From Escherichia phage LinBro: 64,000 nucleotides of DNA. The DNA lies in the sequence record OR896830.1; one strand, given 5' to 3'. Numbering within the stretch: position 1 is the stretch's first letter; the number at the start of each line of letters is the position of its first letter. Positions 3,797 to 64,000 of this stretch are shown here, one piece after another. The position numbers and the translations under genes are program-made. Under the pieces are notes generated by a model that saw only the letters and a list, made by a program, of their open reading frames with translations, was not told the DNA's origin and searched no databases.

Positions 3797-4156
3797 TTAT
3801 GGGAACAGACACTTAATGTCATCGTTTTTGAAAACAAAACTTGTGTAGTTATGACCATCAACATCCAACCAAACAGCCTGAACATCTACACCATCAAGAT
3901 TCTGGTAAAGCTCTTTGATGAAGTGGTCTTTTACAATCTGACTGCTAGTTGTTTCCAGCTTAATGTTCGAGATTGCTGAACCTACAGCCATATAGCCCAT
4001 GACACGTTTCTTCTCAGTATGCTTAATCTTACCATCTTTGTAAGCCATAATGAGATTGGAAAGAATCTTTACACCATAATACTTTTCAAGGTGAGTAGGC
4101 ACACCATAAAAGCCTAATGCGAAGTTTTCAGAGTGGATAATGTTTTCACGTTTCAT
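3797..4156 (-). CDS. hypothetical protein
   Basis: 119-aa ORF in co-directional gene block. Confidence 0.45.
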   Translation of the reverse strand: MKRENIIHSENFALGFYGVPTHLEKYYGVKILSNLIMAYKDGKIKHTEKKRVMGYMAVGSAISNIKLETTSSQIVKDHFIKELYQNLDGVDVQAVWLDVDGHNYTSFVFKNDDIKCLFP

Positions 4157-49424: not shown

Positions 49425-50030
49425 TTAAATGAGTGTTTCCAGAACTGTCTTCAGTGATGACTTGGTTGTCTGATAAAAATGAGTGAAGCCGTTGTTGTTA
49501 TCAAACACCTGCATCATGATATCATCTCCCTTGATTGGGTACACTCGGATATCATAGTGAAGCCCATTAAAGACAGCAGAACCACTACAGAATGAACTAA
49601 AATCATCTACTGAGATGTACTCTTCATGACCTGTGATTTTTATACAAACACCTTTACTCGGTCTCTTAGGGTTGATATCTTCCATCACAGACATATTCTG
49701 TCCACCAAGAGATATCATAGTGACCACTTTACGGTTCTTCTGTCTGAAGTACATTTTAACCTTCTGCAAGGTATCTTCATAGAACGGATAAGACTTCTCT
49801 ACAAAGATTCCTTCAAGTGGCTCTTTACCGTTTACAATACCTCTGGTATGGCGTACTGAGAAGATAAGTTGCTCTAGCAGGTCAAGGCTTTCTTCGGATA
49901 GTGCTTCCCGAATATCATTCCAATCAAGTACTAGGTAGTTACCTTCAACATCTTTTAAGTTATCTTTTTCCATATCTATCACACCATTATCGTAAAACTT
50001 GGTAAGCTGGGACTGCAAACTTGTTGCCAT
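49425..50030 (-). CDS. hypothetical protein
   Basis: 201-aa ORF. Confidence 0.45.
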   Translation of the reverse strand: MATSLQSQLTKFYDNGVIDMEKDNLKDVEGNYLVLDWNDIREALSEESLDLLEQLIFSVRHTRGIVNGKEPLEGIFVEKSYPFYEDTLQKVKMYFRQKNRKVVTMISLGGQNMSVMEDINPKRPSKGVCIKITGHEEYISVDDFSSFCSGSAVFNGLHYDIRVYPIKGDDIMMQVFDNNNGFTHFYQTTKSSLKTVLETLI

Positions 50031-50451
50031 TGTTCTTAATGAGGTCTTCTTCTGTTACTAAGAATGTAATCCCACATAAGTGTGTGTAGTGGCTATCATA
50101 CTCAAATATTTTAAGTAAGTATTTACCATCGTGATAAACAGATTCTACTACACCTTTTGCAACAATCTTTCCAGTCTTGAAATCTTTAAGAGGGTATACA
50201 TTACCAACTTTAGGAACTGTTTTCATCTCAGGTTCTTTTAGCTTCTCACCAGCTTCTACATCACCTAGTAAGTGAGAACTTTCAAACGCTACATATTGCA
50301 TATAAGCCTCTGAGCATTCCCAGATAAAACAATGTACAAGAACCTTAGCAGCATGTCTTGAACAATTCAACTTATCACAAATCTCTTTGTACATTTCGTC
50401 TTTAGTTGAGTTATCAAGCATTGCTTTTTGAACGACTTCTTTAATTTTCAT
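49987..50451 (-). CDS. hypothetical protein
   Basis: 154-aa ORF. Confidence 0.4.
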   Translation of the reverse strand: MKIKEVVQKAMLDNSTKDEMYKEICDKLNCSRHAAKVLVHCFIWECSEAYMQYVAFESSHLLGDVEAGEKLKEPEMKTVPKVGNVYPLKDFKTGKIVAKGVVESVYHDGKYLLKIFEYDSHYTHLCGITFLVTEEDLIKNNGNKFAVPAYQVLR

Positions 50452-50504
50452 TTCGCTACCTTCTAAGTTTCTACAAAGGGGCTATCAAGTAACCCCTCAA
50501 GTTA

Positions 50505-50729
50505 TTACTCAGACTTCTCAGTCTTCTTATCAGATTTCTTACTAGTCTTCTTCTCAGCTTTCTGTTCAGGTTCCTTCTCAGAAGTTGCCTTGATAACCAT
50601 ATCAAGAAGCTCTGATAGGTCACTCTTCAGCAAAGTAACAGGCTGCTCATTGTAGAAGTTTTTGTCAAGATAAACTTTGAACTCTTCTATAGAAGGAAAT
50701 CCAAAAATTGGTACAGGTGTCTTAATCAT
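50505..50729 (-). CDS. hypothetical protein
   Basis: 74 aa with Lys/Glu-rich tail. Confidence 0.35.
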   Translation of the reverse strand: MIKTPVPIFGFPSIEEFKVYLDKNFYNEQPVTLLKSDLSELLDMVIKATSEKEPEQKAEKKTSKKSDKKTEKSE

Positions 50730-50805
50730 TACTTAGTCTCTCCATAGGCATCTTTTAAGATTGCCTTGTTAATCATTTCAGCGATTGCAAAACGAACACA
50801 TACAG

Positions 50806-51339
50806 CTATAATTGTAGGTTGCATTCTTTACTTACCTCTTCAAGTTTAACCTCAGAATCCTTAAGTCGTTTCTTATGAACTCTGAACCTCATTAGTGAGA
50901 TGATGATACCAGCTAAAGGAACAACATACAAGTACCAGACATCATGCAACTTTGCAGTAATCTGTGTAATGGTCAAGTCTTGAGCTATGTAGCTGATTGC
51001 TGATACAGCTAGTAATGTTGCTAAGAAGAAAACCAGTATCATAACAATATTCAGACAACCTCTGGCATGGTATTCATGCTTAATGCACTTATTCTTCTCT
51101 TCAACAACCCTGTTGTAGTCATTTGTAAAGTCTCTGTAGAAAGCTTTTAAGTATTCTTGAGTGTAGCCTTCAAAGCAACCTGTACCATACCAATAATCAC
51201 CACCAAAATGTGCTATGATACCAACCTCTCCATTTGGTTTCGTCACTCTTAAAGAAGTATGATGGCAAGTATCCTGAAAATCTATCTTGTATCTTTCTTC
51301 GTAAATCATTTTCCAACCCCTCTCAATCGTTTGTTCCAC
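50806..51339 (-). CDS. membrane protein
   Basis: Two hydrophobic helices in C-terminal half. Confidence 0.45.
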   Translation of the reverse strand: MEQTIERGWKMIYEERYKIDFQDTCHHTSLRVTKPNGEVGIIAHFGGDYWYGTGCFEGYTQEYLKAFYRDFTNDYNRVVEEKNKCIKHEYHARGCLNIVMILVFFLATLLAVSAISYIAQDLTITQITAKLHDVWYLYVVPLAGIIISLMRFRVHKKRLKDSEVKLEEVSKECNLQL

Positions 51340-51524
51340 TCAAGGTCAACAAGTCTTTGCAGGACTTTCCCTCTAGGTGTTACGCCTTTTAAATCTGCAT
51401 CATAGCAACGGTAAAAGTCACCTTCAGCGTGCTTACCATAGCATTTTCTGATATTCTGGCTTCTACGATACTGTTCTAACAGGGAAAGTTTGTAGTAATC
51501 TTCAACTGTAGTTAACTTTTTCAT
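51306..51524 (-). CDS. hypothetical protein
   Basis: 72-aa ORF. Confidence 0.35.
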   Translation of the reverse strand: MKKLTTVEDYYKLSLLEQYRRSQNIRKCYGKHAEGDFYRCYDADLKGVTPRGKVLQRLVDLEWNKRLRGVGK

Positions 51525-51607
51525 TCTTTTACCATGTCTCTTATCTAGAAACTAAAAAGGGAACTACCTCTCGATAGCTCCCATCATAATCAGTTTTGTA
51601 TACTCGG

Positions 51608-52189
51608 TCAAGAGTATTTTTTAGGCAGTAATGCACTGCGCTTGTTACTCTCTTCACTCAATAGTGCGATAAAATCATCACTTTTACCTTTCCACGGGCT
51701 GAATGAAGGGATATGTTCACGGATAGCCTCGATAACCGTCTTAAGTGCTGTGTTCTTCATCCACCAATCAGGGTCTGCTGATGCTACCACGTAGTACCCA
51801 CCGTCATCAGTTAAAATCGGCTCTGAAATACATGGTGAAATCAAAGTGGTGATGATTGAGCCATTGTTCATGTAATATGTACGCTTAATAACCTTTTCAA
51901 GAAGCTTGTGAAGGTCACCAAACAGTGTTACAAGTTCTTTGTGGTCAATGTCTTTTTCGAGGCTTGCTCGATACTTCAATAGTGCAGCATCAACCTCTCT
52001 GTCATTAAACTTGAAATATTGAACTTCATCAACAAGGCAAACACTGATGTTGTTAACATTCATAGTCAGCTTGCAAACTTTTGCAGGAGAGTTGATGCTT
52101 GGTTGAAAAAGTGCAACACACCCTTCAATATTCCCAAAGTGTTGTACAAGTGTTACTTGTGGAATGATATCCTGTTGCTCTTCGGACAT
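51608..52189 (-). CDS. hypothetical protein
   Basis: 193-aa ORF. Confidence 0.45.
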   Translation of the reverse strand: MSEEQQDIIPQVTLVQHFGNIEGCVALFQPSINSPAKVCKLTMNVNNISVCLVDEVQYFKFNDREVDAALLKYRASLEKDIDHKELVTLFGDLHKLLEKVIKRTYYMNNGSIITTLISPCISEPILTDDGGYYVVASADPDWWMKNTALKTVIEAIREHIPSFSPWKGKSDDFIALLSEESNKRSALLPKKYS

Positions 52190-52533
52190 TACAGTTTCCT
52201 CATTAAATACTTTTTAAGTTGTGTGTTAGGTTTCTCAAAAACTTCTATAGAAGATATCTTAACAGATTCACCACGCATACCAGTATGTTTGAATATGTAA
52301 TACTCTAACATCCCTATGTACTTTGCTGGTAAGTCATGCTTGACATACACCGTCACAGAATCTTCAAATTCGACAACCTTTGTACCATCTTTGTAGTTAA
52401 ACTCTTTAGGATGGTTGTAGTTGTCTATGTCGTACATTAAAAAGAGTCTTTTACGTTGTAAGTCAAGCTTATTTGTTAAAGACTCTTTGATATCTGAGAA
52501 GTTTTTGTACACTGTGACATGGAGCTTACTCAT
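52189..52533 (-). CDS. hypothetical protein
   Basis: 114-aa ORF. Confidence 0.45.
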   Translation of the reverse strand: MSKLHVTVYKNFSDIKESLTNKLDLQRKRLFLMYDIDNYNHPKEFNYKDGTKVVEFEDSVTVYVKHDLPAKYIGMLEYYIFKHTGMRGESVKISSIEVFEKPNTQLKKYLMRKL

Positions 52534-52819
52534 CGTTAAACTCTCTGACGAAGAAATAGTTGACTTTGTTATTACCTACCATAAGGTCAAAGCAGGTATT
52601 CTCAAAAGGTTTGTTGTAGGCATCATATGAAACATATGGGTCAGCTACTTGCTTAGTGCTTAACTTCTTACTTGATGGGTTTAAGAGGCCACCATACAGC
52701 TTCTTGATAGACTCTTCTACAACAGACCAGATGATTTCGTCAGTAATTTCTTCGTACAGGTCAAGTTCACGCTCTAGTGAGAAGTCACAAATAGGGAAAA
52801 TAACCTGTACTTTACTCAT
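52526..52819 (-). CDS. hypothetical protein
   Basis: 97-aa ORF. Confidence 0.4.
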   Translation of the reverse strand: MSKVQVIFPICDFSLERELDLYEEITDEIIWSVVEESIKKLYGGLLNPSSKKLSTKQVADPYVSYDAYNKPFENTCFDLMVGNNKVNYFFVREFNDE

Positions 52820-53214
52820 TAGCGAATGACCTGTGTTACCTGAATAGCTTCAGTTACTGACAAATCACCAACCGTTTCTTCTTTGACGAAGGTGAAGGTA
52901 AGTTCAACAGGCTCTTGTTCTTCCTGCTCAACCGGAATACCGTTAAGCTCATCAAAGATTGATTGAGTTGTCCAGTCTTCTCCACCATCTGGGTAGTGGA
53001 TTGCGTAAAGTGGAAACTCTAAATTATACCAAGCAAAAACAGGGCAACCATCTGCATCATCTCGACATCTGTGGAGATATGTGTTTGTACCTTCAAAATG
53101 CAAATGGAGATTACCATTCTTCTCAAATAGAAGAGCATCTTGCAGGTCTAGTTCCTCATTTTCGCTGTAACGGCTGACATCAACCTTAACATGGATATGA
53201 CTGTTATTATTCAT
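52819..53214 (-). CDS. hypothetical protein
   Basis: 131-aa ORF. Confidence 0.45.
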   Translation of the reverse strand: MNNNSHIHVKVDVSRYSENEELDLQDALLFEKNGNLHLHFEGTNTYLHRCRDDADGCPVFAWYNLEFPLYAIHYPDGGEDWTTQSIFDELNGIPVEQEEQEPVELTFTFVKEETVGDLSVTEAIQVTQVIR

Positions 53215-53605
53215 AAAAACCTCTCTCTGCTTGTTCGATTTTTGCTCTTAAAATTTCGCAATGTTGTAAATGGTAGTTAGCTTCTTGTTCATGTGTTGCT
53301 AACTGCCTTTCAAGAACAGTTTTATAATAACCTGCAAGTTGCTCTTTTGTCAACGGGTGTTCTGAAATAATATCGAGTCCACTTTCGCCAAGAGGGTTGA
53401 ATTGTCCATGCTCATTGACATTGTAAGTCTCAAACTTGAACAGGCCATTGTTCACAGACTCAATAGGTGACAGTTCAACAAGCTCTACAGTAAACCGTGT
53501 ATACACCTTGTCGCCTCTTGAAACCACATTGTTTCCGACAATGCGTACAAGCGAGCCATTGCGAGTGTACTTAAAAGTCCCAAAGTCACTAGCCCAAAGC
53601 TTCAT
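53207..53605 (-). CDS. hypothetical protein
   Basis: 132-aa ORF. Confidence 0.45.
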   Translation of the reverse strand: MKLWASDFGTFKYTRNGSLVRIVGNNVVSRGDKVYTRFTVELVELSPIESVNNGLFKFETYNVNEHGQFNPLGESGLDIISEHPLTKEQLAGYYKTVLERQLATHEQEANYHLQHCEILRAKIEQAERGFYE

Positions 53606-53611
53606 AGTTTT

Positions 53612-53650
53612 CTCCTTAGAAAATAAAAAAGGCTCCCGAAGGAGCCTATG
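53612..53650 (-). terminator. rho-independent terminator
   Basis: Minus strand reads GGCTCCTTCGGGAGCC hairpin then TTTTTTATTTT. Confidence 0.65.
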
Positions 53651-53656
53651 AAGATA

Positions 53657-54121
53657 TTACTTTGGATATACACTGTCAAGATAAATGTCAGCTTCCATTC
53701 TACGTCTGTTTTTCAGACCGTTTGAGGTGACCTTCTTACCTTTGACTGTAACCTTGTTCCACCACTGCATAGCTTCTGCGCAACCTACCTTATTACCAGC
53801 ATTGTGGCGCTTGATAAATGTAGAATCCTGCATAGCTGTGATGCCGATGTTGTATGTTTCACTTACAAGTGCATCAAACTCGTTCTGAGAAGTTGGAACC
53901 TTGATAGCTTTGTTCACTGCTGCAACGAACTTTTCAACATCTGCGAGAAGATACTGTTCAGCTTGTTCAGCGGTAATCTTCATACCCATCTTAACAGGCT
54001 TCCCACCAATACGAATTGTCCCATACCCAATTGTTGGGATTCCGGCAGAGTCTTCGTAAGCCTCTAACTTCAGACCTTCGAAGAACTTAATAGCATCTAA
54101 ACCTTTTCTTGAGAGTTGCAT
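53657..54121 (-). CDS. endolysin, T4-type lysozyme
   Basis: EGLKLEAYEDSAGIPTIGYGT with catalytic Glu/Asp/Thr spacing; 154 aa. Confidence 0.85.
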   Translation of the reverse strand: MQLSRKGLDAIKFFEGLKLEAYEDSAGIPTIGYGTIRIGGKPVKMGMKITAEQAEQYLLADVEKFVAAVNKAIKVPTSQNEFDALVSETYNIGITAMQDSTFIKRHNAGNKVGCAEAMQWWNKVTVKGKKVTSNGLKNRRRMEADIYLDSVYPK

Positions 54122-55005
54122 TATGCCTCCCCTGCTGGATTAACTGTAACTGTTGCTGCATTAGATGTTACAGAGCCACCTGCGCCAGTAACTACACAGG
54201 TGTAGCTTCCTGAATCAGCAGCGGTTGCACCTTCTTTGGTGTAAGTTGCAGTAGTTGCATCGAGGATGTCTTCCTCACCTTTCTTCCACTGGTAACTTGT
54301 TGCACCTGTTGCCACAACATTCAGCGTTAAGGTATCACCTTCAGTGATTTCTTGATTGGTTGGCTGTTGAGTGATTACCGGAAGTGCATTCACAGTCACT
54401 GTTGCTGCATCTGAGGTAACACTTGTTCCACCCTCTCCAGATACAACACAAGTGTATGAACCAGCGTCAGAAGGTGCTACTGACTGTTTTGTGTAAGTTG
54501 CAGAATTGGCACTAGGGATGTCCTCACCATCCTTCTTCCACTGATATCCAGTGGCGTTAGTTGCTAGAATGCTTAGAGTAAGTGTGCCACCCTCATTGAC
54601 TGTTTGACCTGTCGGTTGCTGAGTAATTGCTGGTGGCTTAATAGCATCCTTCAACTTAGCATTCAACATTGAGAACGGCTTAACTCTTGCCAACCATTCA
54701 CAGTAAATTGTGTCAACATCTTTACCATTGATGATTGCATACTGCAAATCCATGAAGAAATCAGCAGTTCTCATCTGTGCACCAACACTGTAAAGCAATT
54801 CGTCACTAAATGGAACTTTGTAGTCTGGTTTGTAGTCAAACTTCTCAACTTCTGCAATATCAGCTTCAGGCCAATATGAACTATAGGTAAGTGGTAAAAT
54901 AGCCTCTTGATATGTTCTAAAATCATATCTCTTACCAGCCTTTACATTTGCAATGAAACCCTTCACAAACTCTTTGAAGTCTGGGTAAGTCTTTGCTTTA
55001 ATCAT
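54121..55005 (-). CDS. protein with two tandem Ig-like domains
   Basis: Two ~80-aa repeats (ITQQPT.Q...G.TLTL...ATGYQWKK...YT...GSYTCVV.G.GG.VTS.AATVTV); N-terminal domain paralogous to next gene. Confidence 0.5.
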   Translation of the reverse strand: MIKAKTYPDFKEFVKGFIANVKAGKRYDFRTYQEAILPLTYSSYWPEADIAEVEKFDYKPDYKVPFSDELLYSVGAQMRTADFFMDLQYAIINGKDVDTIYCEWLARVKPFSMLNAKLKDAIKPPAITQQPTGQTVNEGGTLTLSILATNATGYQWKKDGEDIPSANSATYTKQSVAPSDAGSYTCVVSGEGGTSVTSDAATVTVNALPVITQQPTNQEITEGDTLTLNVVATGATSYQWKKGEEDILDATTATYTKEGATAADSGSYTCVVTGAGGSVTSNAATVTVNPAGEA

Positions 55006-55373
55006 TTCTTTTTAGCCTCTAAATGTGCGTTTAGTCTAAAATAACCTTTGTGATGCGGAGATACATCACCAACAACAATACCTTTAACCTTATAACCTTT
55101 ACCAATTACATACTGGATATCCATAAGGAATCTTCCAAGACCAACAATATGGAACATTGGATATAATAGATTCTCAGAATCTGGAATATTGATTTCAGGT
55201 TTGTAGGTACGCTGTTCGCTTGTTGGTGTAATATCTTCTTCAGGCCACTTACTGAGTCTCCATGTCAAAGGTGTTGGGATAACATCATTAAGGTTGTACC
55301 TTTCACCATTTTGCACGGAATTGATATAGGATTGTAGGAAGCAATAAAAGTCTTTTGCACTCTTAGCTTTCAT
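55002..55373 (-). CDS. paralog of N-terminal domain of Ig-like protein
   Basis: Shares MDLQY.I..GK, YKP and LLY motifs with 54121..55005 product. Confidence 0.45.
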   Translation of the reverse strand: MKAKSAKDFYCFLQSYINSVQNGERYNLNDVIPTPLTWRLSKWPEEDITPTSEQRTYKPEINIPDSENLLYPMFHIVGLGRFLMDIQYVIGKGYKVKGIVVGDVSPHHKGYFRLNAHLEAKKK

Positions 55374-55420
55374 TAAATATCCTTATAAATAGTTAAAGGG
55401 GCATCAGCCCCTATTCACAC

Positions 55421-56011
55421 TTAAGCTTTGGTCTTAAGTAGGTTCTTAAGTTTTTTAAGATTCATACTCTCATCAAACTTAAAACCAAATCCATTGACAT
55501 AATCAATGAACTCGGATTTCTTACTAAGTGACAATGCGTAACTCATATCAAAGTTCTTACTTGTTTCTGCGTCTGGACTAGAGTTCACATCAAATGAAAT
55601 TTCTGTAGGCTCTTGCTTACTTTTTCTCATATTATCAACCAACAAACATGTATAGTTTGCTGGATAGAAGTTTACACTACCATCAACGTAGCTGTACTTA
55701 TTATTATGGATAAGGTTGGAAAATACCTTAAGAAATGTTTCTGAGTCGTGGCAAACAAGTTTGAATTGGCTGCTCTCTCCAAGCGCAACTAATGAGTACG
55801 GACTTTCACTATCAAAGTCATAATTTGGATTCGATGCCGTCACTGTTACACGCATCAAGTTATTAGCAATAGTCTTCTGTTTAAAAGAATTTTGAACATA
55901 GTGAAGACCTCTATCACACTGATTGACTAGCTCTTTAAGTAGGTCATTTGCATATGGTGAATTAATTGATACAGAGCCATCACTATTGTAATTAAAACTT
56001 ACTGTTAACAT
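55421..56011 (-). CDS. hypothetical protein
   Basis: 196-aa ORF. Confidence 0.45.
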   Translation of the reverse strand: MLTVSFNYNSDGSVSINSPYANDLLKELVNQCDRGLHYVQNSFKQKTIANNLMRVTVTASNPNYDFDSESPYSLVALGESSQFKLVCHDSETFLKVFSNLIHNNKYSYVDGSVNFYPANYTCLLVDNMRKSKQEPTEISFDVNSSPDAETSKNFDMSYALSLSKKSEFIDYVNGFGFKFDESMNLKKLKNLLKTKA

Positions 56012-56238
56012 TTTTCAGTTCTCCTGCGATTTATAATTTTGCTGCAATAGAGAAACGAAGTAAACTCACTGGAAGAAACCATTAAGTGTTGTTCACTAGA
56101 TTGAGCCATTGCCCTGAAATACATTCCAGTCAAAGCATCATAGTGACTATTCTTTCCAATTGAGGTTATATAGCCATGACTCTTTGCAGTTTGATATAAA
56201 TCTATAATATCTGCGATTTCTAATTGGGAACTACACAT
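56005..56238 (-). CDS. hypothetical protein
   Basis: 77-aa ORF. Confidence 0.35.
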   Translation of the reverse strand: MCSSQLEIADIIDLYQTAKSHGYITSIGKNSHYDALTGMYFRAMAQSSEQHLMVSSSEFTSFLYCSKIINRRRTEKC

Positions 56239-56402
56239 AGATAATCCTCTTGTCTTCTGTAATTTTGAAAGAACAGGTACAGACCAATTTCAGAGGATGA
56301 ATAGTAGATTAACTCTACCCTTTTTGATTCCTTACAGTGATTGGTATTCTTACCTTTCTTCGGTTTATTTGATTTTCTCATTAAGTCTCCTTTGTAGAAC
56401 AA
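56220..56402 (-). CDS. hypothetical protein
   Basis: 60-aa ORF. Confidence 0.3.
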   Translation of the reverse strand: MFYKGDLMRKSNKPKKGKNTNHCKESKRVELIYYSSSEIGLYLFFQNYRRQEDYLCVVPN

Positions 56403-56630
56403 GGCAGACCTACAGCTTTAAGTAAGATGGTACAGTAATCCATACAACAAGTCAAGAACTATTGCAAGTTAAAAAAGTTGTTGACAAAGTACTTGACAAG
56501 GTGTAGGCTTATAAATACTTAGAAGATAACTTAAAAGGTTCCTCTAAAAAGGCTATTTAAACAGATATCTTTCTGGATATCTATCTTTTATCTTAAAAGC
56601 CTTTTAAGAGGTCTTATAAGAGGCATACCA

Positions 56631-57002
56631 ATGAAAAACAGAACAAACAAAGGCCAGTTTAAAAAAGGCCAATCTGGAAACCCATCTGGAAGACCAAAAG
56701 GCTCTCGCAACAAAAGCTCACTTGTAAAAGCTCAACTGACCATTGACAATTCTGCTGAGTTTGCTGCAAAGTTATTTGAAGCGATTGTTACAAGGGATGC
56801 TGCTAAGCTTGCAGAGTTCGGGTTAAACACAGATGACGTAACCATCAAGAGTATGATTGAGGTCGGTAAAACTATCTTTACTCACTCAGCAGGCGAGATG
56901 AAAGCACTTGCAGCAGACACTAAGAAGACTCCTGATAGTGGTGGTCAACAACAGACAGATAACAAACCAACGTTCTCTGCTGTAGCGACTCTCAAAAAAT
57001 AA
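56631..57002 (+). CDS. hypothetical protein
   Basis: N-terminal basic KGQSGNPSGRPKGSRNK motif. Confidence 0.4.
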   Translation: MKNRTNKGQFKKGQSGNPSGRPKGSRNKSSLVKAQLTIDNSAEFAAKLFEAIVTRDAAKLAEFGLNTDDVTIKSMIEVGKTIFTHSAGEMKALAADTKKTPDSGGQQQTDNKPTFSAVATLKK

Positions 57003-57014
57003 TTTTAAAAGGTG

Positions 57015-57044
57015 TTGACAGACTCTACAAAGTTGCTCTAAAGT
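57015..57044 (+). promoter_or_regulatory. sigma70-like promoter upstream of Ro60-like gene
   Basis: TTGACA, 18-bp spacer, TAAAGT; GACAGACT / AGTCTGTC inverted repeat overlaps it. Confidence 0.35.
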
Positions 57045-57083
57045 CTGTCACATCAAACAACAAATGAGAGAAGAGAGTAAAAT

Positions 57084-63398: not shown

Positions 63399-63491
63399 GG
63401 AAGATTAACCCTAAAAGGTAAGGGAGCAGTTTGCTAAACTGCCAGTAGCTGAGAAATCGGTGTACCAGTTCAAGTCTGGTATCTTCCTCCA
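63399..63491 (+). tRNA. tRNA-Ser (anticodon GCT), long variable arm
   Basis: Acceptor GGAAGAT/ATCTTCC perfect, anticodon stem GCAGT/ACTGC, loop TTGCTAA, long arm, T-arm ACCAG-TTCAAGT-CTGGT. Confidence 0.75.
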
Positions 63492-63495
63492 ATTT

Positions 63496-63571
63496 GAATC
63501 CGTGACAGAAATGGATATGTGCCTGTCTGCAAAACAGGTTTATAAGGGTTCGAGTCCCTTCGGATTCTCCA
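63496..63571 (+). tRNA. tRNA-Cys (anticodon GCA)
   Basis: Acceptor GAATCCG/CGGATTC perfect, anticodon stem CCTGT/ACAGG, loop CTGCAAA, T-arm AAGGG-TTCGAGT-CCCTT. Confidence 0.75.
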
Positions 63572-63608
63572 AGTTATTTTACTCTCTCTCAATTAAAATA
63601 ATAATAAT

Positions 63609-63668
63609 GCCCTGCTATAGGTATTCTTCCTTTCGCTACCGAAGAGTATTTTTAGACAGGGCTTTTTT
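63609..63668 (+). terminator. terminator-like long hairpin after tRNA cluster
   Basis: GCCCTG ... CAGGGC outer stem then TTTTTT. Confidence 0.45.
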
Positions 63669-63793
63669 ACAGAGTTATACTTTATAAGAAGGCTTATACA
63701 GTATGTCTCTGACGTACATTGTGGTTTCTCCTTGACGGTCTCTGTGCCGTCTTTTTTAAGGAGAAACATGGTTAATTATTTGGAGAAAACATA

Positions 63794-63994
63794 ATGAGTG
63801 AGACCGTTTATAAAGAACTTTATGAAGCTAACAAAAAGCTAGAATTTATGCAGAACACTATCATGGCAATTGCAGATAGATTATCTGTAGCAACAGGTAT
63901 TGATATCAAAGAAGCCTCTATGGATGCACTTCTTGATGCTGTTGATGCAAAGTTCGAAGTTAAGAAAGAAGAGACTGCTACAGACTCTGAATAA
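63794..63994 (+). CDS. hypothetical protein
   Basis: 66-aa ORF with stop just before window end. Confidence 0.35.
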   Translation: MSETVYKELYEANKKLEFMQNTIMAIADRLSVATGIDIKEASMDALLDAVDAKFEVKKEETATDSE

Positions 63995-64000
63995 TTCTAT

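Follow-up and report, generated by a model that had tools for sequence, protein, structure and literature searches.

Gene organization of the locus

We analysed a window of 64,000 nucleotides from Escherichia phage LinBro (OR896830.1), a Felixounavirus with megablast identities of 98.7% to phage garuso and 94.8% to Felix O1. Two minus-strand open reading frames (ORFs) of 123 and 294 amino acids (aa), each with an ATG start, were confirmed where a preliminary description of the sequence had placed them, and the gene order at the locus is identical to that of garuso and Felix O1. The genes, their domains and the surrounding signals are as follows:

55398..55411, minus strand: hairpin GGGGC-TGAT-GCCCC, then TTT, in the gap that separates the 123-aa gene from the 196-aa gene upstream
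55380..55384, minus strand: Shine-Dalgarno (SD) AAGGA of the 123-aa ORF, 6 nt 5' of the ATG, kept in all aligned lineages
55373..55002, minus strand: 123-aa ORF, paralogue of the capsid-binding domain (CapBD) of Hex-Dec, lacking Ig domains and corresponding to Felix O1 ORF37, Sf14 gp21 (FDI99_gp021) and SUSP1 agp126; phrog_4463
55016..55019, minus strand: SD GAGG of the 294-aa ORF, within the 3' end of the 123-aa ORF
55005..54121, minus strand: 294-aa ORF, assigned as Hex-Dec, corresponding to Felix O1 gp36 and Sf14 gp20; phrog_3995
54640..55005, minus strand: CapBD of Hex-Dec, covering aa 1-122 and near-identical to the residues that were modelled in 9ncf_S and 9c2d_S
54385..54636, minus strand: Ig-like domain 1, aa ~124-207 (Pfam Ig_3 / I-set; AF2 pLDDT >90)
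54136..54384, minus strand: Ig-like domain 2, aa 208-290 (Pfam Ig_2 / I-set; AF2 pLDDT >90)
54121..53657, minus strand: GH24 endolysin, 154 aa, Felix O1 gp35 (Pfam Phage_lysozyme 6.7e-41; phrog_7)
53630..53647, minus strand: strong intrinsic terminator AGGCTCC-TTCG-GGAGCCT plus TTTTTATTTT, found by terminator scan, closing the block of paralogue, Hex-Dec and lysin genes

The 123-aa stop and the 294-aa start overlap as ATGA (55002-55005), and the stop of the 294-aa ORF shares 1 nt with the start of the GH24 lysin gene, bearing out the endolysin adjacency pointed out in the preliminary description. Because the GAGG SD lies inside the 123-aa ORF and the two ORFs meet in the ATGA overlap, they are likely to be translationally coupled. 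Both signals are kept in every locus compared (30/30), including the pseudogene lineage. The tandem order recurs in 28 IMG/VR loci, in Sf14 and SUSP1, and in one divergent metagenomic phage; synteny with the lysin is kept in all loci compared, Erwinia phages included. Conservation of the two genes extends to about 250 phage records.

The 294-aa ORF is read in the -1 frame with respect to the 123-aa ORF, whose end (GCT AAA AAG AAA TGA) holds a shifty AAAAAG at 55013-55008, just before the stop, where a -1 ribosomal frameshift would yield a fusion with two CapBDs. We rejected this reading, which is almost certainly wrong. The AAAAAG is not conserved in Mooglevirus, Suspvirus and some Felixounavirus loci (GCTAAGAAATGA, GCTAATAAAAATGA, GCTGAAAAG), and the Hex-Dec ORF has a conserved SD and ATG of its own. 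Moreover, Felix O1 proteomics contains no fusion: no gp37 peptides were reported, and gp36 was described as a 31.6-kDa protein (PMC3185647).

The hairpin upstream of the 123-aa gene corresponds to "t38", a predicted rho-independent terminator of Felix O1 (PMC3185647 Table 2). In an alignment of the upstream region, in which the Felix O1 row was disregarded, it is conserved in Felixounavirus, Sf14 and SUSP1, and the divergent phage L037 carries a hairpin of different sequence at the same place. We grade it as weak, since a simple terminator scan gave no call for it. A promoter scan returned fewer sigma-70-like sites than shuffled sequences did, and no late promoter was definable by it.

Assignment of the 294-aa protein to capsid decoration

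The 294-aa protein matches two capsid chains over its full length, from residue 1, in phmmer searches: the Bas63 Hex-Dec (9ncf_S, E=1.6e-245) and Sf14 gp20 (9c2d_S, E=7e-167). For its N-terminal domain, the PDB matches are capsid-bound chains only. By sequence, the protein is thus the orthologue of Felix O1 gp36, Bas63 Hex-Dec (PDB 9NCF) and Sf14 gp20 (PDB 9C2D), a family whose role in capsid decoration was already published in 2025. In Bas63 and Sf14, cryo-EM showed a Hex-Dec monomer in the middle of each pentamer-proximal hexamer of a T=9 capsid, 60 in all, and the maps had no density on the 20 unoccupied hexamers (PMC12609058, PMC11821841). The residues through which the Sf14 gp20 CapBD contacts the MCP are Arg79 and Arg107 (PMC11821841). 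Both (Sf14 numbering) are present here and invariant in the Hex-Dec alignment, and position 79 is Arg in every Hex-Dec, the Erwinia and divergent forms included.

Published proteomics of relatives points the same way. Felix O1 gp36 was detected in purified virions by mass spectrometry (MS) with 44% coverage (PMC3185647), and Sf14 gp20 was likewise found by virion MS (PMC11821841). The resemblance to capsid decoration or adhesin proteins suggested in the preliminary description, which named absence from virions as a possible refutation, is therefore upheld for the longer product by the structural matches and the relatives' virion MS; it did not carry over to the shorter one, which was not found in virion proteomes.

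Taken together, the locus of this Felix O1-type myophage is very probably a gene pair for hexamer decoration, comprising the 294-aa Hex-Dec and, in the 123-aa product, a diverged duplicate of its CapBD. No finding contradicted the Hex-Dec assignment. From the ~97% identity of the CapBD, we infer for this phage the placement that cryo-EM and MS have shown in relatives. A single copy of the N-terminal CapBD (~120 aa, helical) would enter the acidic centre of the MCP hexamer, where salt bridges from Arg79 and Arg107 to MCP Asp221 would keep it in place. Of the hexamers in the T=9 shell, Hex-Dec would occupy just the 60 pentamer-proximal ones. The two C-terminal I-set-type Ig domains would then point outward as a short flexible fibre. 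By analogy with the proposal made for T4 Hoc, this fibre probably lets the particles adhere weakly to surfaces, mucus or cells, or makes them aggregate. An MCP gene, sought for a check of Asp221, was not present within the 64-kb window; the MCP sequence printed for Felix O1 does contain the residue (PMC3185647). The AF2 model of the 294-aa protein has a pLDDT of 30-55 in the CapBD, too poor for interface analysis, and the Sf14 authors reported that the AlphaFold CapBD did not fit their density (PMC11821841).

Most GenBank records and PHROGs present the 294-aa protein as a tail protein resembling a major tail subunit. For example, phrog_3995 is described as "tail protein", the Felix O1 record reads "HK97 major tail subunit", and PHROG matches to major tail protein families are indeed recovered. 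However, all similarity to tail families falls within the Ig region (aa ~120-290), whereas the N-terminal domain is the capsid-binding domain modelled by cryo-EM in 9NCF and 9C2D. Since the similarity is limited to the Ig domains and cryo-EM of relatives contradicts it, we rejected the tail reading as highly improbable; the label is wrong, and the Bas63 authors call the tail annotation incorrect outright (PMC12609058). The assignment thus corrects a widespread mis-annotation and assigns the gene to a family of decoration proteins that is defined by structure.

The 294-aa gene is located away from the structural module, with the GH24 endolysin gene right after it. This adjacency could also suggest that the pair belongs to a lysis cassette, as a holin, spanin or lysis regulator. 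The 1-nt overlap with the lysin gene and the synteny retained even in Erwinia phages would fit such a role, to which we nevertheless give very little credence. Neither protein has a hydrophobic or transmembrane segment (maximum KD(19) 1.1), and gp36 is a virion protein (PMC3185647). In Felix O1 RT-PCR, ORF36 and ORF37 both reached their maximum at 60 min, whereas the neighbouring ORFs 35 (the lysin) and 38 did so at 25 min (PMC3185647). Given the lack of transmembrane segments and the differing expression peaks, we regard the endolysin adjacency as conserved synteny and not as a link to lysis; the lysin, for its part, has no share in the decoration function.

Ig-like repeats and comparison with other decoration proteins

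Two Ig-like repeats of ~80 aa had been proposed for the longer product, subject to a predicted Ig fold, and HMM search and structure prediction both recovered that fold. Pfam matched two stretches of the C-terminus each with Ig_3 (4.3e-23), Ig_2 (2e-18) and I-set (4e-16). AF2 modelled both repeats as beta-sandwiches with pLDDT >90, and Foldseek aligned them to tandem Ig structures (among them MALT1, Robo and titin) with E-values down to 1e-14. The repeats measure 84-86 aa each and are 62% identical to each other in protein and 63% in DNA. Ig domains are promiscuous add-ons, seen on tail, head and fibre proteins alike.

Across the genus, the Ig copy number ranges from 1 to 4. Ig1 of the present phage shares 92% identity with repeat 1 of L007, a 4-Ig variant; Ig2 shares 97% with repeat 4 of that variant and is also near-identical to Bas63 Ig4. 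Judged from these alignments, Ig1 is orthologous to the first, capsid-proximal repeat of the 3- and 4-Ig variants and Ig2 to the last, distal one. The 1-Ig forms are chimeras of the first and last repeats with differing crossover points. Copy number thus probably shifts through in-register recombination between repeats, and this phage has the first and the last of them.

The closest characterized counterpart is the Hex-Dec of Bas63 (Escherichia phage JohannRWettstein; 9NCF chain S; PMC12609058), a phage of the same genus. Its CapBD (aa 1-122) is near-identical, its gene likewise lies beside the lysin and outside the structural module, and the protein has the same plan of an N-terminal CapBD followed by a C-terminal Ig string. 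Bas63 Hex-Dec has four Ig domains and 460 aa, in contrast to two and 294 aa here, with Bas63 Ig1 and Ig4 corresponding to our Ig1 and Ig2. Sf14 gp20, from a Shigella phage of the genus Mooglevirus (9C2D / 9C3A chain S; PMC11821841), is orthologous, shares Arg79 and Arg107, and is accompanied by the same tandem upstream paralogue, gp21. It differs in having three Ig domains (372 aa), and its CapBD and paralogue are ~87% and ~77% identical to those of this phage, respectively.

T4 Hoc offers a functional parallel: it too is a monomer at hexamer centres with an outward Ig-like string, is dispensable in the laboratory, and has a proposed role in adhesion or aggregation. However, the CapBD is C-terminal in Hoc and N-terminal in the 294-aa protein, and the two CapBDs are topologically distinct, without sequence similarity (PMC12609058). 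The PHROG Hoc-like families match the 294-aa protein only at aa 120-292. As the similarity is limited to the Ig domains, the protein is Hoc-like in how it works and not a member of the Hoc family. Similarly, T5 pb10 (PDB 5LXK and others) has a similar Ig domain (E=2.8e-12), with tblastn matches in T5-like phages, but carries a single Ig domain and an unrelated capsid-binding domain, with nothing matching aa 1-122, and is bound to each of the 120 hexamers in a T=13 capsid.

The anchor-only paralogue

The capsid decoration described above is known biology; the modest unreported detail is a conserved, late-expressed paralogue that consists of the anchor domain only. That the 123-aa and 294-aa products share an N-terminal domain, as the preliminary description had proposed, was supported by BLASTP, which aligned the shorter protein to the N-terminal ~120-aa domain of the longer with 38% identity over 101 aa (E=3e-16). 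The families phrog_4463 and phrog_3995 cross-match, and phmmer aligns the 123-aa protein to residues 3-117 of 9ncf_S (E=1.2e-11). Foldseek ranked 9c2d_S / 9ncf_S as the best matches of its model (TM ~0.5), which is of low confidence (AF2 pLDDT 58) and likewise too poor for interface analysis. The protein has no Pfam matches and ends after the CapBD, without Ig-like domains; all 51 of its 51 homologues are 104-124 aa long.

The 123-aa ORF is a real gene, transcribed late together with Hex-Dec. Its dN/dS of 0.126 indicates purifying selection, at a rate of change about three times that of the Hex-Dec CapBD (0.045). It is basic, with a pI of 9.1 against 5.5 on the Hex-Dec side, and the computed charge at pH 7 is +3.8, versus -1.5 for the CapBD and -11.5 for the whole Hex-Dec. 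Residue 79 is Gly in every paralogue, and position 107 is His, Gln or Arg. A knock-down screen in SUSP1 classed the paralogue as non-essential, its depletion having no fitness effect. Its orthologue gp37 is missing from the Felix O1 virion protein list (PMC3185647), and, going by the main text of the VpaE1 paper, the paralogue is not among the 22 virion proteins of that phage. We found no mention of it in the structural accounts of Sf14 (PMC11821841) or Bas63 (PMC12609058).

These properties bear on whether the paralogue is itself a second, Ig-less decoration protein that sits stably on the virion, either on the 20 true-threefold hexamers or in competition with Hex-Dec as a control of fibre density. 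Its membership in the CapBD fold family, late co-transcription and coupling with Hex-Dec, purifying selection, and a basic charge that would match a hexamer centre lined with Asp, as reported for Sf14 (PMC11821841), all speak for this. We nevertheless consider it quite improbable: virion MS of Felix O1 (PMC3185647) and VpaE1 did not reveal the paralogue, although a protein as small as the 9.7-kDa gp23 was caught, the remaining hexamers lack density in the Bas63 and Sf14 maps, and Arg79 is replaced by Gly.

Alternatively, the paralogue might act on Hex-Dec or on assembly intermediates, as a chaperone or placeholder on the acidic CapBD or on procapsid hexamers that is released before or during maturation. 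The opposite charges of the two proteins, the tandem, overlapping and late co-expressed arrangement strictly kept across deep divergence, and the absence from Felix O1 virions (PMC3185647) are consistent with this. So is the pattern of loss: the paralogue is pseudogenised in SP116, Z31 and vB_CECAV_041, and in the lineages that lost it, Hex-Dec is either broken or of the shortest type, with 1 Ig domain. However, other 1-Ig phages (L018, L022 and L031) retain it, the Erwinia Kolesnikvirus, in which the paralogue is absent, makes a decoration protein from a single CapBD+Big_2 gene, and Hex-Dec is monomeric on the capsid (PMC12609058). We therefore regard this reading as unlikely.

As a regulator or chaperone of capsid decoration born from duplication of the anchor domain, the paralogue could also be dedicated to governing where or when Hex-Dec binds. 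Such a late factor might transiently cap the procapsid or the true-threefold hexamers, or escort the acidic Hex-Dec, and would, if true, help explain why only 60 of 80 hexamers are decorated; we assign this proposal a low probability. Our best guess is that the paralogue is an accessory factor that is either not part of the virion or only loosely and transiently associated with the capsid. Rather than serving as a second stable decoration protein, it may have kept the ability to recognise MCP hexamers or Hex-Dec itself. If it does interact with either, the pair would offer a simple and genetically tractable model of the choice that decoration proteins make among quasi-equivalent hexamers, and it could also be relevant to the engineering of Felix O1-type capsids for phage display.

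The CapBD family is confined to Ounavirinae-like phages, since a full HMMER profile search of 1.84 billion representatives recovered just 12 proteins. Word-indexed homologue searches returned close relatives only. The 123-aa gene very probably arose by tandem duplication of the CapBD alone, within the enterobacterial Ounavirinae lineage, and diverged later. In the distant members of the family, the CapBD is fused to Big_2, to I-set or to a Lys-rich tail.

The gene pair and its surroundings

Reading the open reading frames (ORFs) of the window placed two tandem genes on the minus strand, directly ahead of an endolysin gene. The features of the locus and its surroundings are:

55411-55398, minus strand: conserved hairpin upstream of the 123-aa ORF (GGGGC-N4-GCCCC-TTT), identified from the sequence
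55373..55002, minus strand: 123-aa ORF, hereafter the paralogue
55005..54121, minus strand: 294-aa ORF
54121..53657, minus strand: GH24 endolysin, 154 aa (Pfam Phage_lysozyme, 6.7e-41)
53647-53630, minus strand: strong intrinsic terminator after the lysin gene
57084-58499, plus strand: DUF2828/DUF7788 protein, labelled 'RNA-binding', 'vWA' or 'vWFA' in other records
58665-63571, plus strand: block of 26 tRNA genes, 24 of which pass the Rfam tRNA threshold

The 123-aa and 294-aa ORFs overlap by ATGA, and the stop of the latter overlaps the endolysin start at 54121, confirming the adjacency noted in the preliminary description. That description had also proposed paralogs with a common N-terminal domain, the longer one extended by two Ig-like domains of ~80 aa, and its coordinates proved exact. 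Indeed, the ~120 N-terminal residues are common to both products (38% identity over 101 aa, E=3e-16, BLASTP), which also match reciprocally in PHROG. The C-terminal repeats of the longer product, 84-86 aa each and 62% identical to one another, both match Pfam Ig_3 (4.3e-23), Ig_2 and I-set, with two stretches per family. AlphaFold2 modeled residues ~123-290 as two beta-sandwiches (pLDDT >90), and Foldseek matched this region to solved tandem Ig modules of MALT1, Robo and titin, with E-values down to 1e-14.

A megablast search with window positions 53000-56500 matched 252 phage records, of which 233 are full-length. Escherichia phage garuso was the top match (98.7%), and Felix O1 matched at 94.8%. 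In Felix O1 the counterparts are ORF37, ORF36 and ORF35, annotated respectively as hypothetical, 'gene 12, tail protein' and endolysin p13; they stand in the same order as in garuso. These identities and the shared gene order assign the phage, on sequence grounds, to Felixounavirus. A Felix O1-type enterobacterial copy of the locus, 95.3% identical, also occurs at 141185-144685 of GU169904.1 (Staphylococcus phage SA1, 147 kb), an assembly that is probably chimeric or contaminated.

To the right, the locus is followed by a divergently transcribed DUF5681 gene, the DUF2828/DUF7788 gene and the tRNA block; no Rfam family other than tRNA was found within window 50000-64000. On the other side lies a 131-aa ORF (52819-53214, minus strand) that garuso and several further records label 'D-alanyl-D-alanine carboxypeptidase'. 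The ORF had no Pfam match at E<=0.01, and the label looks propagated and unsupported. The counterpart of the Felix O1 'hypothetical membrane protein' is a 177-aa ORF (50806-51339, minus strand), ~2.3 kb downstream of the lysin gene, with a strongly hydrophobic stretch at residues 98-116 (KD(19) 2.73); its product may be a factor in lysis or in the membrane.

The 294-aa protein and its Ig repeats

In a sequence search against all PDB chains, two full-length matches to the 294-aa protein stood far ahead: 9ncf_S, the 460-aa 'Immunoglobulin-like domain protein' of phage Bas63 (E=1.6e-245), and 9c2d_S, the 372-aa 'tail protein' of Shigella phage Sf14 (E=7e-167). Both are Hoc-like hexamer decoration proteins, named Hex-Dec in Bas63 (Sci Adv 2025, PMC12609058) and gp20 in Sf14 (Commun Biol 2025, PMC11821841); the Bas63 authors called the 'tail protein' annotation wrong. 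According to these two studies, a capsid-binding domain (CapBD) of ~118-122 aa at the N terminus sits as a monomer at the center of major capsid protein (MCP) hexamers, and within the T=9 shell occupancy is limited to the 60 pentamer-proximal hexamers and does not extend to the 20 true three-fold-axis hexamers. In Sf14, Arg79 and Arg107 form salt bridges to MCP Asp221 (PMC11821841). The C-terminal Ig domains, of which 1 to 4 are predicted among Felixounaviruses, are flexible and without resolved structure, and the decoration gene lies >10 kb from the structural module (PMC12609058, PMC11821841).

Alignment showed that Arg79 and Arg107 are both retained in the 294-aa protein, whose CapBD shows 95-100% identity among members of the genus. 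Judged by every defining feature that can be read from sequence, the protein belongs to the Ounavirinae Hex-Dec/gp20 family. The orthologues are virion components: Felix O1 gp36 was detected in CsCl-purified virions by shotgun MS (14 peptides, 44% coverage; PMC3185647), and Sf14 gp20 was likewise detected by MS (PMC11821841). The earlier suggestion of capsid decoration was therefore correct and is already published, the main object being known and structurally characterized. With high confidence, we follow the published mechanism shown in relatives: the CapBD would plug the acidic center of pentamer-proximal hexamers via Arg79 and Arg107, and the Ig domains would stick out as a short fiber that probably mediates weak adhesion or aggregation, as in Hoc. 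The adhesin role, also raised in the preliminary description, is a hypothesis that both structural papers took over from T4 Hoc (PMC12609058, PMC11821841). A lysis role for the gene pair was rejected, neither protein having a hydrophobic segment.

Although the 294-aa protein works like T4 Hoc, it falls outside the Hoc family: its domains come in the opposite order, its CapBD is unrelated and the likeness is confined to the Ig domains. T5 pb10 shares the N-terminal anchor, C-terminal Ig arrangement and the hexamer-center location, with a similar Ig domain (E=2.8e-12), but not the anchor itself.

The orthologues in 32 related loci have lengths of 210, 294, 377 or 461 aa, corresponding to 1-4 Ig domains. 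For Ig copy number, we compared the Hex-Dec genes of the window and of four of these loci (L018, L022, L005 and L007). Repeat by repeat, the capsid-proximal Ig1 of the window is 92% identical to repeat 1 of the 4-Ig variant and the distal Ig2 is 97% identical to repeat 4; the 2-Ig form (54136-54636) thus keeps the first and last repeats and lacks the middle ones. In two 1-Ig variants, the first and last repeats are fused into a chimera, with the crossover close to YQWKK for L018 and close to CVV(S/T)G for L022. This orthology and these chimeras show that in-register recombination between repeats has changed copy number repeatedly, and the differing crossovers imply that the two 1-Ig forms arose by separate contractions.

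The Ig-less paralogue

The 123-aa ORF has the marks of a real gene: a Shine-Dalgarno AAGGA 6 nt from its ATG, full-length presence in 232/252 records (it is absent from ~19/252), and a dN/dS of 0.126 (pairwise Nei-Gojobori, 22 sequences). By the same method, the Hex-Dec CapBD came out at 0.045, the lysin at 0.08 and the 196-aa gene upstream at 0.09. Its sequence matches the CapBD of 9ncf_S (E=1.2e-11). The AlphaFold2 model is poor (pLDDT 58), yet its two best Foldseek PDB matches are 9c2d_S and 9ncf_S (TM ~0.5, probability ~1.0). Together, the sequence match and the low-confidence model are evidence for a CapBD fold in the paralogue.

The order 196-aa gene, paralogue, Hex-Dec, lysozyme is kept in Felixounavirus, Mooglevirus (Sf14 gp21/gp20/gp19), Suspvirus (SUSP1 agp126/125/124) and a divergent 87-kb metagenomic phage (L037), whose paralogue is <50% identical (best 48.8%) to any in the phage collection. 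Erwinia Kolesnikviruses are syntenic but carry one CapBD+Big_2 gene without a paralogue, so the CapBD duplication is specific to enterobacterial phages of this group. A full profile search found only 12 CapBD family members among 1.84 billion representative proteins, the distant forms being fused to Big_2, I-set or a Lys-rich tail. The CapBD is thus an anchor module confined to one lineage, and its display domains are exchangeable. The words 'paralog', 'gp21' and 'gp19' are absent from the Sf14 paper (PMC11821841), as is 'paralog' from the Bas63 paper (PMC12609058); the conserved Ig-less paralogue is apparently a modest detail unreported in the searchable literature.

Expression and possible roles of the paralogue

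The Shine-Dalgarno GAGG of Hex-Dec sits within the 3' end of the paralogue ORF. Since this motif and the ATGA overlap are kept in every locus compared, they suggest that the two genes are translationally coupled. A shifty AAAAAG lies right before the 123-aa stop (55008-55013, minus strand), with the downstream ORF in the -1 frame. A programmed frameshift fusion was rejected as unlikely, since neither Mooglevirus nor Suspvirus conserves the motif. The upstream hairpin was listed as a terminator by Whichard et al. (PMC3185647), and L037 has a hairpin of different sequence (GGGGTTA...TAGCCCC) at the equivalent position (3960-3985). That position is kept while sequence differs suggests selection for an RNA or terminator structure that parts a middle-expressed upstream gene from the late pair. 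In Felix O1 RT-PCR, ORF36 and ORF37 peak at 60 min with the structural genes, and ORFs 33, 34, 35 and 38 at 25 min (PMC3185647 Table 3).

Late expression and the anchor fold would fit a stable Ig-less decoration protein, a reading we consider unlikely. The paralogue is not in the list of 17 Felix O1 virion proteins, though a 9.7-kDa protein was detected (PMC3185647). In the VpaE1 paper, gp54, gp58 and gp68 alone were new relative to that list, implying that its paralogue, gp40, was not detected in virions. Unoccupied hexamers showed no density in either cryo-EM study (PMC12609058, PMC11821841). The position of Arg79 is Arg in every Hex-Dec, including Erwinia and divergent forms, and Gly in every paralogue; that of Arg107 is His, Gln or Arg in paralogues. 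The paralogue is basic (pI 9.1, +3.8 at pH 7); acidity is mild in the CapBD (pI 5.5) and strong in whole Hex-Dec (pI 4.6, -11.5 at pH 7). Lacking both display domains and Arg79, the 123-aa protein should not, by its sequence, be annotated as a decoration protein.

Tentatively, the most likely role is that of a late accessory protein, non-virion or loosely bound, which still recognizes MCP hexamers or Hex-Dec. A role as chaperone or placeholder, serving Hex-Dec or procapsids off the mature virion, is unlikely; an unrelated new function is a further hypothesis. The paralogue is dispensable: it is a decayed remnant, with its start lost and a ~220-nt internal deletion, in SP116, Z31 and vB_CECAV_041. 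When SUSP1 was screened transcriptome-wide by CRISPRi-ART, agp125 (Hex-Dec) and agp126 (paralogue) were both 'Not Fit', but so was the lysin, so the screen has false negatives (PMC11879866 supplement).

A conserved Ig-less paralogue is worth a targeted experiment, for which natural knock-outs exist in Shigella phage Z31, Salmonella phage vB_CECAV_041 and an SP116-like contig. The remnants lie at L003:2306-2497, L004:2313-2497 and L023:2809-3000 in these related loci (window 55002-55373), with flanks that still align; in Z31 the Hex-Dec gene is itself split, into 134 aa and 55 aa.
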